A stretch of 64,000 nucleotides of DNA from an uncultured Subdoligranulum sp. (GTDB lineage Bacteria; Bacillota; Clostridia; Oscillospirales; Ruminococcaceae), in the NCBI GenBank assembly GCA_964560675.1, contig CAZLMA010000005.1, forward strand, positions 7,473-71,472, given 5' to 3'. The notes below the pieces were generated by a model, which saw only the letters and a list, made by a program, of their open reading frames with translations, was not told the DNA's origin and searched no databases. Numbering within the stretch: position 1 is the first letter of the stretch; every line of letters starts with the position of its first letter. Below, one piece after another: positions 3,406-6,520 of this stretch. Position numbers and translations under genes: made by a program.

Positions 3406-4941
3406 ATGGGAAAGAGTATGCCACAACGAAATACCGATTTTGCCGCACAGGCAAGTAGTGAACCGTCTCTTCCTGAGCAGGCGGCTGTACGCCGCCAAAA
3501 GCTTGCGGAACTGCGCGCCGCCGGGCAGGATCCCTTTACGTTGACGCGCTATCCGCAGAATGCCTGGTCGAGCGACCTGCAGGCGGAATACGCACAATTG
3601 CCACCGGAAGCACAAACAGACCGCAGAGTCGCATTGGCCGGGCGGCTCATGAGCAAGCGCGTGATGGGCAAGGCGAGTTTTGCCCACCTGCGCGATGCGA
3701 AGGGCGATATCCAGATTTTCCTCAAACGCGACCTGCTGGGCGACGACGCCTATGCGGCTTTTAAAAAGCTGGATGTCGGTGACATTGTAGGCTGCGACGG
3801 CGTAGTGTTTCGGACCAGGATGGGGGAACTGACAGTTCGCGTAGAGTCCCTTACACTGCTGAGCAAAAGCCTGCAGCCGCTGCCGGAGAAGTATCATAGA
3901 TTGACGGATCGGGAGGCCAGGTACCGTCAGCGCTACCTGGATTTGATTACCAATCCGGACTCTCGCGAGGTCTTTATCAAGCGCTCCAAAATCATCAGCG
4001 CGATCCGGCGCTTTTTAGAAGCCAAGGGATTTTTGGAAGTAGAGACGCCCATGTTGGTGGAAAATGCTGGCGGTGCGGCGGCGAGGCCTTTTGTAACGCA
4101 TTATAACGCCCTGGATACCGATGTCAAACTGCGCATCTCGCTGGAGCTCTATCTAAAAAGGCTCATCGTCGGCGGTCTGGATCGCGTATTTGAGATCGGA
4201 CGGGTATTTCGCAACGAAGGTCTGGACACACGCCATAATCCGGAATTCACCCTGATGGAGCTGTATCAGGCGTACACTGATTACAACGGCATGATGGACT
4301 TGACCGAAGAGATGTTCCGCACCGTTGCACAGGAAGTATGCGGCACGACTACCGTGCCGTACGGCGACGCGGTGATCGACTTGGGTGGGCCCTATGCGCG
4401 CCTGACCATGGTGGCGGCCGTAAAGCAGTATACTGGCGTTGATTTTGATACCGTCGCCGACACCGCCGCCGCGAGAGCGCTTGCCGACTCGCACGGCGTA
4501 GTCTGGGAGCCCAGGCATCAAAAGGGCGATATCCTCAATTTGTTCTTTGAGCAGTTTGTGGAAGAGCATCTAATTCAGCCGACTTTTGTGCTGGATCACC
4601 CGGTGGAGATCAGCCCCCTGACAAAACGCAAGCCGGACAACCCCGACTATGTGGAGCGTTTTGAGCTCTTTATCTGCGGACGCGAGATGTGCAACGCCTA
4701 CTCGGAGCTAAACGACCCCATCGACCAGCGCGCGCGCTTCGCCGCGCAAGAAGAGCAGTTTGCGCAGGGCAATCTAGATGCCAACCACACAGACGAAGAC
4801 TTTTTAAACGCCCTTGAGATCGGCATGCCGCCCACCGGCGGGATCGGATATGGCATCGACCGCCTTGTCATGCTGTTGACAAACGCGCCCGCCATTCGCG
4901 ATGTGATCTTATTCCCCACGATGAAACCCTCTATCATGTGA
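3406..4941 (+). CDS. lysS: Lysyl-tRNA synthetase (class II)
   Basis: OB-fold RVMGKASFAHL, motif 2 FRNEGLDTRHNPEFT, motif 3 [15 protein letters not shown]. Confidence 0.98.
   Translation: MGKSMPQRNTDFAAQASSEPSLPEQAAVRRQKLAELRAAGQDPFTLTRYPQNAWSSDLQAEYAQLPPEAQTDRRVALAGRLMSKRVMGKASFAHLRDAKGDIQIFLKRDLLGDDAYAAFKKLDVGDIVGCDGVVFRTRMGELTVRVESLTLLSKSLQPLPEKYHRLTDREARYRQRYLDLITNPDSREVFIKRSKIISAIRRFLEAKGFLEVETPMLVENAGGAAARPFVTHYNALDTDVKLRISLELYLKRLIVGGLDRVFEIGRVFRNEGLDTRHNPEFTLMELYQAYTDYNGMMDLTEEMFRTVAQEVCGTTTVPYGDAVIDLGGPYARLTMVAAVKQYTGVDFDTVADTAAARALADSHGVVWEPRHQKGDILNLFFEQFVEEHLIQPTFVLDHPVEISPLTKRKPDNPDYVERFELFICGREMCNAYSELNDPIDQRARFAAQEEQFAQGNLDANHTDEDFLNALEIGMPPTGGIGYGIDRLVMLLTNAPAIRDVILFPTMKPSIM
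4792..4925 (+). repeat. Direct repeat copy 1 (functional lysS 3' end)
   Basis: GACGAAGACTTTTTAAACGCCCTTG...CCCACGATGAA recurs 1579 bp downstream. Confidence 0.95.
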
Positions 4942-4974
4942 ACGTCCGAAAAGGCCTTTATTTAGAGGACACTG

Positions 4975-5005
4975 AAAAGCCCCCGTCTGACTTTTCAGAC
5001 CGGGG
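4975..5005 (-). terminator. Hairpin terminator between convergent lysS and AAA gene
   Basis: CCCCGTCTGA/TCAGACCGGGG stem; T-tract on the minus strand. Confidence 0.55.
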
Positions 5006-5010
5006 TGTTC

Positions 5011-6240
5011 TTAGAATCTCCGTCCGGATCGGATGAACTCCATCAGATTCACGTGCTGAACTCCATTTCTGCGCTGTAGCAGGTAGTCTGTCGTGAGGAG
5101 ATATTTGGGATAACTGTCTTTTACAGATTCCAGCGGGCGGTATTCACGATCTTCCGTTTCCCTGCTCTGGGCAATCGTGTAGGCAACTTGGACATAGGCA
5201 TAATTCATAGTTGTGTCGCGCAGGATGAAATCACATTCAAAATTTCTGAACTTACCGACGCTGACCGTGTAATCAAGTGAATTGGCGTAGAGAAAAACGA
5301 TGTTCTCCAGAGCCGGGCCGTAGTTGATACGGTTGTCGGTGTTGTTCGCGTAGTAAAAGCTGAGGTCTGCGAGGTAATATTTCTTTTCGCCAGACAGCGC
5401 TTTTTTGGATTTCATGTCAAACCGCGGGCATTCGTAGATAATTTTTGCGTCAAGAAGCGCTTTGACATATCTCGAGACTGTTTCTTTCGAGATTTTCGTG
5501 CCAAGTTTTCTGAGTTCGTCACAGATATTGTTCAGGCTGAAGAGAGAGCCGAAATTTCCGATTACGAAGCGTCTGATCGTCTCAAAGGTCTCCTTGTCGC
5601 GAATTTTCACTCTGCGGCGGATGTCCTTTTCAAAGATTTCCTGGACCACGCCCTGCACATAGCGGCGCTTGTCCGCCAGGGAATCGAAGAGGACCGTTCG
5701 CGGGAATCCTCCTTCGAGGATGTAACTCTCCAGCTCGGCCGCGGCGTTTGGATCGACCGGCTTTGCGTAGAAGCGCTTCATCTCCTCGTATTCGCCGAAG
5801 CTCAGAGGGAACATCTCAAACGGGAGATAGCGGCCGGTCAGTTTCGTAGTGATTTCTCCGCTTAAAAGATAAGAGTTGGATCCGGTGATAAAAATAGACC
5901 AGCCTCCATTCGTCCTAAATCCATTTAATATCTCCTCGAACCCGTTTACATTCTGAATTTCGTCAATAAACAGATATTTAAGCCCAGCAGCGCTTCCTCT
6001 TGTAAGGATTAGGGATTCAAGCGCGTCGGGGGTGATAACCTTCCGGTATTCGCGTCTGTCTAAATCGAGGTAGATAATGTTCTCCTCCGGCACACCTTTT
6101 TTTCTCAGTTCGTCCGCAATCATCAGCATAAGGCTGGATTTCCCGCATCTTCTTACACCGGTGATAACTTTAATAATATCGTCGGTTTCGTAAAATCCCC
6201 TGATTTTCTTCAGGTAGTTTTCCCTGATATATAAATCCAT
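5011..6240 (-). CDS. AAA_14 family ATP-binding protein with C-terminal DUF4143
   Basis: Walker A GVRRCGKS, Walker [16 protein letters not shown]-terminal LENIV...ECDFI...YVQVA; RBS AAGGAG supports start at 6240. Confidence 0.88.
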
Positions 6241-6370
6241 CTGTGCGTCCCTCCTTACTCGAAAAAATAGCACATTTTTGAGAAAGTATCAAGTTAACGC
6301 CGCCGATTTTGCATTTTTGTTAAAATCGGCAGCGTTAAAGTACTTTTTGGAGAGCGAGTGGCGCGACGGT

Positions 6371-6520
6371 GACGAAGACTTTTTAAACGCCCTTGAAATC
6401 GGCATGCCGCCCACCGGCAGGATCGGATACGGCATCGACCGCCTTGTTATGCTGCTGACAAACGCGCCCGCCATTCGCGATGGGATCTTATTCCCCACGA
6501 TGAAGCCGCTGTCCGAGTAG
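6371..6520 (+). pseudogene. lysS: Displaced second copy of the lysS 3' end (DEDFL...MKPLSE*)
   Basis: 128/134 nt identical to the lysS end; G->R in motif 3 (TGRIG) and V->G; no upstream lysS sequence. Confidence 0.9.

Follow-up and report, generated by a model that had tools for sequence, protein, structure and literature searches.

The 3' end of the lysyl-tRNA synthetase gene lysS was found to be duplicated in the 64,000-nucleotide stretch of uncultured Subdoligranulum DNA analyzed here (the window), with foreign DNA holding a single ATPase/nuclease gene enclosed between the two copies. About even confidence is placed in the explanation that the repeat is a long target duplication arising from the insertion of a one-gene cassette into the end of lysS. 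Duplication of the target on insertion was shown by empty sites for the same type of cassette in a rumen Clostridiales genome (locus L046), and we infer it for the window.

Duplication of the lysS end

The intact lysS gene, encoding a class II lysyl-tRNA synthetase (LysRS), occupies positions 3406..4941 of the plus strand, with the ATG at 3419 as its likely start codon, and its product matched the Pfam tRNA-synt_2 profile (2.7e-93) and an OB anticodon domain. A repeat search and a MAFFT alignment placed direct repeats of 137 nt at 4792-4928 (copy 1) and 6371-6507 (copy 2), both on the plus strand, with 95% identity, seven mismatches, and a start-to-start distance of 1579. Copy 1 forms the final 137 nt of the functional gene ahead of its tail, and copy 2 is an orphan lysS 3' fragment that matched tRNA-synt_2 at profile positions 256-307 only. 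A genome-wide BLAST search with the repeat returned these two copies and no more (E 5e-56).

An earlier note on this DNA had given 134 bp with six substitutions at the same spacing; the spacing holds, whereas the repeat is three nucleotides longer, with AAA/AAG at 4926 as a seventh difference. The six differences listed in that note were correct. Four are synonymous like the seventh (copy 1/copy 2: GAG/GAA, TAT/TAC, GTC/GTT, and TTG/CTG), and two are non-synonymous changes in copy 2, namely GGG to AGG, which replaces a glycine by arginine in the GGIG of motif 3, and GTG to GGG, which replaces a valine by glycine. Both of the latter hit otherwise invariant LysRS residues and are confined to copy 2. 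When polarized with outgroups, four of the differences fell in copy 2, including both non-synonymous ones, and three in copy 1, all synonymous; GC to AT transitions made up six of the seven. The longest mismatch-free blocks within the repeat are 26-27 nt, and the first 26 nt of the copies are identical. The 137-nt repeat folded no better than shuffles (z +0.7 and +1.1), with no special secondary structure, and hairpin-directed cutting of the lysS target was rejected on this ground.

In the MAFFT alignment, the identity of the copies breaks off at 4928. The working lysS ends in ...FPTMKPSIM* and copy 2 in MKPLSE*, as the earlier note had stated. The new tail, S-I-M-stop (4929..4941, plus strand), is encoded by the first bases of the inserted DNA, and P-S-I-M does not resemble the P-[ILV]-[DE] endings seen in relatives, a mismatch to be expected if translation just continues into foreign DNA. 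The tail of copy 2, L-S-E-stop (6508..6520, plus strand), is of the native type, as its CCGCTG...GAG-stop is like the endings found in relatives (CCGCTGGACTGA, CCGATCGAGTAA). Adjoining its stop codon is a chromosomal terminator module of about 88 nt (6519..6605), which whole-genome BLAST located 3' of tRNA genes throughout the genome, including six other tRNA genes besides the one here. This is followed by a tRNA-Lys (UUU) gene at 6609..6683 on the minus strand, convergent with the original lysS end (ARAGORN; Rfam tRNA 68.5 bits).

Copy 2 is the displaced native end of lysS, since it abuts the tRNA-type terminator module, its tail resembles those of relatives, and it is the only copy with non-synonymous changes. 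These changes further indicate a functionless relic in which decay has begun. Sequence after either tail was not significantly similar to the lysS 3' flanks of relatives (z <= 2.7 after copy 1), and the nearest species vary in what lies after lysS. Only two LysRS proteins are recorded for the species, both with the new tail; the conspecific P0122 is 99% identical and carries the same SIM ending. An empty lysS allele was found neither among these records nor when metagenomes were scanned for the native lysS-tail junction. The arrangement recurred in two other assemblies. A Logan contig from another run and another strain (L034, 98.9% identical) reaches from lysS through copy 1 and the new tail into the 3' part of the ATPase gene, and L121, a 100% identical contig of a third assembly, covers the palindrome of the insert, copy 2, and tRNA-Lys. 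The species occurs in the sequencing runs SRR14209493, SRR14209495, and SRR34575285.

The insert and its protein

The insert comprises 1442 nt (4929-6370), with its entry point 13 nt ahead of the lysS end, and it is considered foreign because its GC content (47%) and GC3 (59%) lie below those of the flanks (56% and 67%, respectively). A single gene (5011..6243, minus strand), present in one copy in the genome, encodes a 410-aa AAA_14-DUF4143 ATPase/nuclease of COG1373, which corresponds to the PADLOC candidate PDC-S01. Together with flanks of 69 and 127 nt this gene fills the insert, leaving neither a gene remnant nor spare room. A G+C-rich hairpin (CCCCGTCTGA/TCAGACCGGGG), read from the sequence at 4975..5012 and part of the insert, starts 6 nt past the ATPase stop and is predicted to be the terminator of the ATPase gene and, in the opposite direction, of lysS; homologs of it were found neither in the same genome nor in JGI metagenomes. 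On the 5' side of the gene lies a predicted sigma-70-like promoter (6264..6292, minus strand; TTGATA-17-TGcTATTTT), preceded by a 45-nt palindrome, TTAACGCCGCCGATTTT-N11-AAAATCGGCAGCGTTAA (6294..6338), which forms the 5' boundary of the cassette. A short stretch of non-lysS sequence (6339..6370), located 5' of the palindrome when read with the gene, belongs to the insert and is absent elsewhere in the genome. Neither the insert of the window nor that of L046 has terminal inverted repeats at its ends, and no known transposase was found in the former.

Profile searches assigned the protein to Pfam AAA_14 (2.5e-33) and DUF4143 (1.8e-13), both above the cut-offs, and the PADLOC PDC-S01 profile PDLC04787 matched it over its full length (E 1.1e-135, residues 2-405). 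The P-loop (G29-R31-R32-G34-K35-S36) and the Walker B residues D94-E95 are invariant across 34 homologs. In an AlphaFold model with a pLDDT of 90, the best PDB folds were those of the archaeal AAA+ ATPases 2fna/2qen and Orc1/Cdc6, and a C-terminal alpha-beta-beta-beta-alpha-beta unit was present, in which D293, E313, E336, and D338 are invariant or near-invariant. Both the P-loop ATPase and the PD-(D/E)XK-type core are thereby predicted to be intact, and the product is most likely an ATP-dependent DNA-binding nuclease, which may serve in phage defense or in its own spread. No DDE, HUH, or recombinase family was matched in profile searches, and comparison with NCBIfam, PHROGs, and PDB sequences gave no informative match.

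The family is described as a fusion of an ATPase and a PD-(D/E)XK-superfamily domain (PMC3424549, PMC12988326). PDC-S01 is one of the loci that defense-annotation pipelines call most abundantly: it is fourth in frequency among 'defense systems' across prokaryotes, put forward solely as a 'guilt-by-embedding' candidate (PMC12988326), and the single locus seen most often in rumen genomes (PMC13356809). COG1373 also ranks among the genes most often shared between gut genera (PMC10782964).

Related cassettes in other genomes

Genes of the PDC-S01 type were found standing alone in Bacillota, Actinomycetota, Bacteroidota, Spirochaetota, and other phyla, with 55-83% identity. For the two closest cassettes, L040 and L041, which lie in two other genomic contexts, DNA homology to the window extends from a few nucleotides 5' of the palindrome to the stop codon. 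The palindrome-promoter-gene unit thus appears, from these alignments, to be a discrete and self-contained cassette. Attempts to compare L040 with an empty site found only the downstream ribosomal genes to be common to relatives.

The palindrome is conserved along with the gene. Its motif, TTAWS...SWTAA, was present in 47 of 65 loci versus five of 128 coding controls, and across loci the palindrome ends 41-66 nt ahead of the ATG. Covariation between the arms preserved pairing in 358 of 506 variable-position cells, versus a maximum of 284 with permuted arms. The layout of the family consists of 13-19-nt arms around an A/T-rich spacer of 7-29 nt, with GTTAAC/GTTATC at the outer ends, and in homologous cassettes a -35-like TTGAT/TTGAA follows immediately. 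In the literature searched, no description was found of the conserved upstream palindrome, the discrete cassette structure, or the target duplications of PDC-S01.

The closest parallel to the window was observed in L046, where a cassette of the same type was inserted exactly from palindrome to stop (3884-5222), with nothing else. It is flanked by 59-nt repeats of an SRP-RNA terminator with three mismatches (95% identity), and no dispersal of this repeat was seen in its genome. At least five related species have the empty site, with contiguous flanks and a single copy of the sequence. These comparisons show that in L046 a cassette of this type inserted independently and 59 nt of its target were duplicated. 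Unlike in L046, the insert of the window exceeds the minimal cassette, by 18-32 nt and about 45-82 nt.

A survey of flanking repeats at 64 PDC-S01-type loci, all of this one gene family, found six above the null. Solid target-derived duplications were limited to the window and L046 among the 64. The repeats at L090 and L085, which lie further out from the gene, were rejected as target duplications, being dispersed, in 19 and at least 40 copies, respectively. Similarly, L050 turned out to be a tandem pair of paralogous cassettes, and at L072/74/75, L091, and L104 it is the palindrome itself that repeats.

Origin of the lysS repeat

According to the target-duplication explanation, a foreign piece of 1.44 kb (4929-6370) would have entered 13 nt before the end of lysS, and the 137 nt of target to the left of the insert would have been duplicated on insertion. 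The upstream copy would keep lysS whole, with translation then running three codons into the insert such that S-I-M-stop replaces L-S-E-stop, and the downstream copy would stay joined to the native tail, the terminator module, and tRNA-Lys, and would decay. We infer that the repeat originated in situ, for example by widely staggered nicks followed by fill-in, and was not carried in by the element. A candidate for the enzyme is the cassette's own Orc1/Cdc6-like ATPase with its PD-(D/E)XK domain, and an alternative candidate is a function of the host or a helper that acts at the palindrome or near it. The 4:3 split of the differences, the six GC to AT changes among seven, and the synonymous-only changes of copy 1 fit a duplication in situ followed by decay. 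The proposal in the earlier note that both copies were once working ends of different lineages may also hold. Insertion is older than the split from the L034 strain, which differs by 1.1%. Excision mediated by RecA, as envisaged in the earlier note, would be plausible given the length of the perfect blocks within the repeat.

Alternatively, a fragment may have been integrated, by a Campbell-type or a homology-facilitated illegitimate event, from a close relative whose cassette already lay downstream of lysS, although this is considered unlikely. A circularized or one-side-anchored fragment of lysS end, tail, terminator, and cassette would yield two hybrid copies, with donor and recipient about 5% apart. 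Copies that are 95% rather than 100% identical agree with such an event, and neither repeat pair, in the window or in L046, is identical (95% each), which is also expected if the allele of a related donor recombined in. A stop follows copy 1, with a good hairpin terminator 34 nt further on, as at a genuine gene end, and copy 1 carries three silent derived differences; the perfect blocks of 26-27 nt are near the RecA minimum, and copy 2 has on its left side a sharp junction of illegitimate appearance. However, two of the seven differences represent decay after insertion under any model, the P-S-I-M tail is unlike that of every relative, and the sequence past copy 1 lacks significant similarity to their lysS 3' flanks. 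The primary insertion in the donor would also remain unexplained, as would L046, where the insert is the exact cassette and both repeats are of the local terminator.

Integrase-less derivatives of ICEs are termed CIMEs, and the earlier note had proposed an origin of this kind. Here, an ICE, IME, or prophage with a tyrosine integrase would have integrated site-specifically at the lysS 3' end, bringing a new gene end with it, with internal deletions then leaving an att-flanked, CIME-like scar around a defense-like gene. Much of what led to this proposal was borne out, namely a duplicated lysS 3' end, a working gene with a changed C-terminal tail, one opposite-strand gene between the copies, and, through the PDC-S01 match, a defense-like passenger. 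The use of lysS 3' ends as targets is likewise documented, both for ICEs of streptococci, with direct repeats of 13-17 bp (e.g., ICE_SsuGZ1_lysS; PMC4701971), and for vanD islands of Enterococcus and gut Eubacteriales, with 11-bp repeats (PMC8725431). As in these elements, lysS direct repeats enclose foreign DNA located 3'-terminally in a housekeeping gene, the gene remains functional with a substituted end, and the cargo is defense-like. The identical first 26 nt of the copies could contain a core site, and tyrosine recombinases encoded elsewhere in the genome, where five PF00589 matches were found, all on other contigs, could act in trans.

In contrast to these elements, the repeat of the window measures 137 nt, which is 8-12 times the 11-17 bp of known lysS att repeats, and the insert holds one gene in 1.4 kb instead of tens to hundreds of kb. 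In a profile search of the genome's contigs, the 107-kb contig gave no PF00589 match; neither a recombinase gene nor a fragment of one was found on it. Between the repeats there was no integrase, excisionase, relaxase, or other transfer gene or remnant, nor room for one, and L034 has the same content as far as the contig reaches. What remains is a single complete cassette, whose type inserts by itself at unrelated sites in many genomes, L046 among them, an outcome unlikely from random deletion. No further short orphan lysS end was present among the strong matches listed from 401 genomes of the order. An element that lost its integrase is therefore regarded as a doubtful origin, and islets of the 'att-flanked, integrase-less' kind need not be decayed ICEs.

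Lastly, an assembly artefact, in which the lysS ends of two strain variants were merged into a false duplication, is highly improbable even for a 48-contig draft that is probably metagenome-derived, in which 95% repeats can mislead assemblers, because both novel junctions recur in the independent single-run assemblies L034 and L121 and the left side of the 6370/6371 junction is non-lysS sequence that allele collapse cannot make.

If the target-duplication explanation is extended to the whole family, PDC-S01/COG1373 genes would be autonomous or trans-mobilized one-gene mobile cassettes, with the palindrome as the cis site, the encoded ATPase-nuclease or a host factor inserting the unit, and staggered cuts duplicating 50-140 nt of target. 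This generalization is tentative and rated as rather improbable. Were it true, long duplications would permit harmless landing in the ends of essential and RNA genes, and the 'defense island' enrichment of PDC-S01 would partly reflect its own mobility. The window and L046 indicate that the gene travels as a discrete palindrome-promoter-gene cassette, which can reside alone in an essential gene's end without harming it and can, on arriving, duplicate 59-137 nt of target. They thereby provide a concrete cis element, with its junctions, bearing on whether PDC-S01 is a defense gene, a selfish mobile gene, or both.

Comparison with known mobile elements

The nearest likeness in the length of the duplication was found in IS1634 and IS1549 of the IS1634 family, whose target duplications are long and variable, from 8 to 514 bp (PMC2266710). 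Duplications at the cassette would be similarly variable and of tens to hundreds of bp (59 nt in L046 and, under the target-duplication explanation, 137 nt in the window), and a mechanistic model is available for neither system. However, the insertion sequences have a DDE transposase and terminal inverted repeats, whereas the cassette has neither and instead combines one subterminal palindrome with a AAA+/PD-(D/E)XK protein.

Small units without a recombinase of their own are also represented by integron cassettes, bounded by attC, and by Acinetobacter pdif modules, bounded by Xer sites, both of which comprise one to a few genes at a structured or palindromic site. By analogy, the cassette may be likened to these as a small unit at a palindromic site without a recombinase. 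Its palindrome, however, fits neither the R''/R' arrangement of attC nor the 11-6-11 layout of dif. It is located 5' of the gene and adjoins the -35 element of the cassette's own promoter, whereas attC sits 3' of a promoterless ORF, and variants with GTTATC...GATAAC have a polarity opposite to attC. Furthermore, only one palindrome is present in the window, and the direct repeats there consist of lysS and not of the palindrome. No intI was seen near the examined loci.

Plasmid and phage homologs of the ATPase were only distant (about 30-37% identity) and mostly on Acinetobacter plasmids; in one such plasmid that was inspected, a single pdif-like site lies 2 kb off and does not flank the gene. 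A circular vehicle of about 5.03 kb, suggested by recurrent contigs of about that length, was rejected, as these represent chromosomal context. In Gardnerella, five copies of the family palindrome bound blocks that are reshuffled between genomes.

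The lysS repeat and the enclosed gene

The intact lysS gene (3406/3419-4941; Pfam tRNA-synt_2, 2.7e-93) ends in the first of two 137-nt direct repeats, 4792-4928 (copy 1) and 6371-6507 (copy 2), which carry seven mismatches and are spaced 1579 nt apart. A search of the window's own genome returned the lysS-end repeat in two copies only (E 5e-56). Copy 2 is an orphan fragment, whose Pfam tRNA-synt_2 match is limited to the last 52 positions of the model. An earlier note on this DNA had described 134 bp with six differences; the substitutions and tails that it listed were recovered, but the repeat reaches 137 nt once a seventh difference, which is silent, is included.

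As the same note had observed, a single gene on the opposite strand lies between the copies (5011-6243, minus strand). It encodes a 410-aa protein with AAA_14 (2.5e-33) and DUF4143 (1.8e-13) domains, and the PADLOC candidate single-gene system PDC-S01 was matched over its full length (E 1.1e-135), while sequence searches of NCBIfam, PHROGs, and PDB with this protein returned nothing informative. PDC-S01 is described as the fusion of an ATPase with a PD-(D/E)XK domain, a candidate from 'guilt-by-embedding' that is not yet validated experimentally, and it ranks fourth among the commonest defence calls in prokaryotes (PMC12988326). Among single loci in rumen genomes, it has the highest frequency (PMC13356809). 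A confident AlphaFold model with an alignment of 34 homologs as input (pLDDT 90, pTM 0.91) had its best fold matches, over the N-terminal two-thirds, in the archaeal AAA+ ATPases 2fna and 2qen and in Orc1/Cdc6, with STAND, RuvB, RFC, and MuB ranking lower. The modeled C-terminal third follows the alpha-beta-beta-beta-alpha-beta order of PD-(D/E)XK nucleases, a superfamily whose listing includes DUF4143/COG1373 (PMC3424549), and residues D293, E313, E336, and D338 are invariant or near-invariant among homologs.

A promoter of its own (TTGATA-17-TGcTATTTT) and a ribosome-binding site precede the gene, a hairpin terminator begins 6 nt past its stop codon, and the gene occurs once in its genome. 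The insert between the copies (4929-6370) has a GC content of 47% against 56% in the flanks, and a GC3 of 59% against 67%.

A recurrent cassette bounded by a palindrome

More than 8000 homologs of the ATPase were found at E < 1e-30, the closest being 82% identical. No recombinase lies within 5 kb of the close homologs, which are lone genes in unrelated contexts: flanked by a DUF6440 gene and rplU, placed in a phage-like region, or set between genes for GNAT and flavodoxin-like proteins. Among species-representative genomes, the family occurs at 48-83% identity in Clostridia, Erysipelotrichales, Gardnerella, Coriobacteriia, Bacteroidaceae, spirochaetes, Elusimicrobium, and Lentisphaeria, and COG1373 belongs to the families that gut genera most often share in nearly identical form (PMC10782964). 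When the window was compared with the two closest cassettes, which lie in differing contexts (L040 and L041), DNA homology extended from a few nucleotides 5' of a palindrome to the stop codon. These sequences show the insert to be a discrete cassette that recurs.

The palindrome (45 nt, 6294-6338) marks the 5' edge of the cassette homology. A TTAWS...SWTAA palindrome was found within 130 nt upstream of the gene in 47 of 65 loci, compared with five of 128 coding controls and nine of 65 shuffles, and at least nine net paired positions were found in 37 of the 65 loci compared with one of 65 shuffles. Covariation between the arms is seen at positions 6-11, with pairing of 70-93% and as many as four Watson-Crick pair types at a single position; overall, 358 of 506 cells were paired against a permuted-arm maximum of 284, a measure inflated by the relatedness of the loci. 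The palindrome ends 41-66 nt before the ATG, usually with a -35-like TTGAT/TTGAA directly after it. Its symmetry fits a hairpin or cruciform site and a dimer-binding operator alike. No second copy was found in the own genome, and the window has a single one.

In a Gardnerella locus (L120; G041:C1:166000-184000), five near-identical 47-nt palindromes of the form GTTATCGTGGCA-N23-TGCCACGATAAC (6460-6506, 7856-7902, 9946-9992, 11448-11494, and 14244-14290) lie within 8 kb beside nrdEF, and the blocks between them hold different genes: one for the ATPase of this family, one for a protein of the ATPase_2/DUF234 type, and a block with a response regulator. Across three Gardnerella genomes, homology blocks were bounded exactly by the palindromes and were inverted or reshuffled. 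Because the blocks begin and end at palindromes, a role in recombination, either site-specific or by homologous exchange between repeats, appears favored over a pure operator role.

Copy 2 in its original context

The stop codon of copy 2 passes straight into a module of ~88 nt (6519-6605), composed of a bidirectional terminator hairpin and a conserved flank, which adjoins the tRNA-Lys(UUU) gene (6609-6683). Since this is the tRNA terminator module of the genome, copy 2 is in its original chromosomal context, and lysS and tRNA-Lys were convergent before the insertion, with one terminator common to both. The module (hairpin plus GTCAAAAAGTAGTCAAAATGGATTT) was found 3' of six tRNA genes (Lys-UUU, Lys-CUU, Thr-CGU, Thr-UGU, Asn, and Arg), while three further own-genome copies lack a tRNA. 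Besides the window copy, these lie at C6:94908-95064, C32:15798-15953, C27:7214-7366, C13:32072-32219, C16:2277-2401, C31:10723-10810, C35:2728-2805, and C39:3291-3383, the one on C35 directly behind a tyrosine-recombinase pseudogene.

The copy 2 tail, CCG CTG TCC GAG TAG (P-L-S-E*), resembles the P-L-D* and P-I-E* tails of relatives, whereas the P-S-I-M* tail of copy 1 is unlike every relative's tail compared. When polarised against five outgroup lysS genes, four derived sites fell in copy 2, including two at otherwise invariant residues, one in the motif-3 GGIG (G->R) and one in RDV (V->G), and three, each silent, in copy 1. GC->AT transitions account for six of the seven differences. All copy 1 states are common to a conspecific strain (L034, 98.9% identity), which makes the insertion older than the 1.1% strain split.

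Origin of the duplication

The reading we favor, to which we give about an even chance, is that a self-contained PDC-S01 cassette would have landed 13 nt ahead of the lysS stop codon and duplicated 137 nt of its target, thereby keeping the essential gene whole. A rumen Clostridiales locus (L046) carries a cassette of the same type from exactly palindrome to stop codon (3884-5222), just past an apparent SRP-RNA gene (~3530-3825, recognised by eye) that lies downstream of tadA. The SRP-RNA terminator stands on both sides of the cassette as a 59-nt direct repeat (three mismatches), and dispersed copies of this repeat were not found in that genome. In at least five related species, the flanks are contiguous with one terminator copy; therefore, the arrival of a PDC-S01 cassette on its own can be accompanied by a long duplication of its target and by nothing else. 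In our view, this locus is the best evidence that the lysS repeat could be something other than the att pair of a decayed island.

Among the 64 loci having both flanks, six showed gene-flanking repeats above the cross-locus null, and only the window and L046 represent solid target duplications. Two repeats at a greater distance from the gene proved to be dispersed: that of L090 (110 nt, 779-888 and 3867-3976) has 19 copies in an Erysipelotrichaceae MAG, and that of L085 (81 nt, 16-96 and 1963-2043) has at least 40 in a Lachnospiraceae MAG, often at contig ends. L050 is instead a tandem pair of paralogous cassettes, and in L072/L074/L075, L091, and L104 the palindrome itself is repeated either side of the gene.

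Descent from an integrase-borne island, as the earlier note proposed, perhaps by a clean deletion, is a less economical and unlikely reading. Its premise was confirmed: streptococcal ICEs target lysS 3' ends, with repeats of 13-17 bp (PMC4701971), and the vanD islands of Enterococcus and gut Eubacteriales do so as well, the repeats there being 11 bp (PMC8725431). However, the repeat here is 137 nt, and the 107-kb contig lacks a tyrosine recombinase, all five in the genome being on other contigs. The insert consists of one complete cassette and is too full for any remnant, and the strong matches listed from a search of 401 genomes of the order included no other orphan lysS end. The observation in the earlier note stands, and its interpretation is supported in part.

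Similarly improbable is a donor allele from a related strain with the cassette behind lysS, acquired by Campbell-type or homology-facilitated illegitimate recombination of a fragment. It would yield two copies of ~95% identity and a new gene end equipped with a terminator, but it is opposed by the atypical P-S-I-M* tail, the lack of similarity to relatives' lysS flanks, and the L046 case. An empty lysS allele was not found in the protein collection or JGI metagenomes. For the favored insertion with target duplication, the only documented precedent found was IS1634/IS1549, with long, variable target duplications that likewise lack a mechanistic model, although these elements use a DDE transposase (PMC2266710).

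An assembly artefact, which the earlier note had allowed for, is very hard to credit, as separate assemblies between them carry the two junctions: L034 extends from lysS through copy 1 and the new tail into the 3' end of the ATPase gene, and an independent single-run contig (L121) covers the palindrome, copy 2, and tRNA-Lys.

The lysS neighborhood in relatives

In the nearest species, lysS is ~82% identical in DNA and LysRS 84-85% identical, and other genes follow lysS. In these species (L035-L039), trpS precedes greA-lysS and shares its strand, but in the window (7567-8583) it lies downstream on the opposite strand, an arrangement indicating a local inversion, one breakpoint of which is close to the 3' end of lysS. 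An Rfam search of 4700-7600 (E <= 1) returned tRNA only, with no other RNA family, including at 6787-6966, and a promoter-like TTTGCA-18-TATACT site was observed at 6751-6780 on the plus strand. The LysRS of several relatives (L004, L012, L014, L015; P0129, P0137, P0169) has a C-terminal extension of ~150 aa with a tRNA_bind domain (PF01588) after a low-complexity linker, which the window LysRS lacks. Additionally, a 705-aa LysRS (P0123) contains an internal tandem duplication of ~200 residues, probably an assembly artefact on its short ENA contig (2676 nt).
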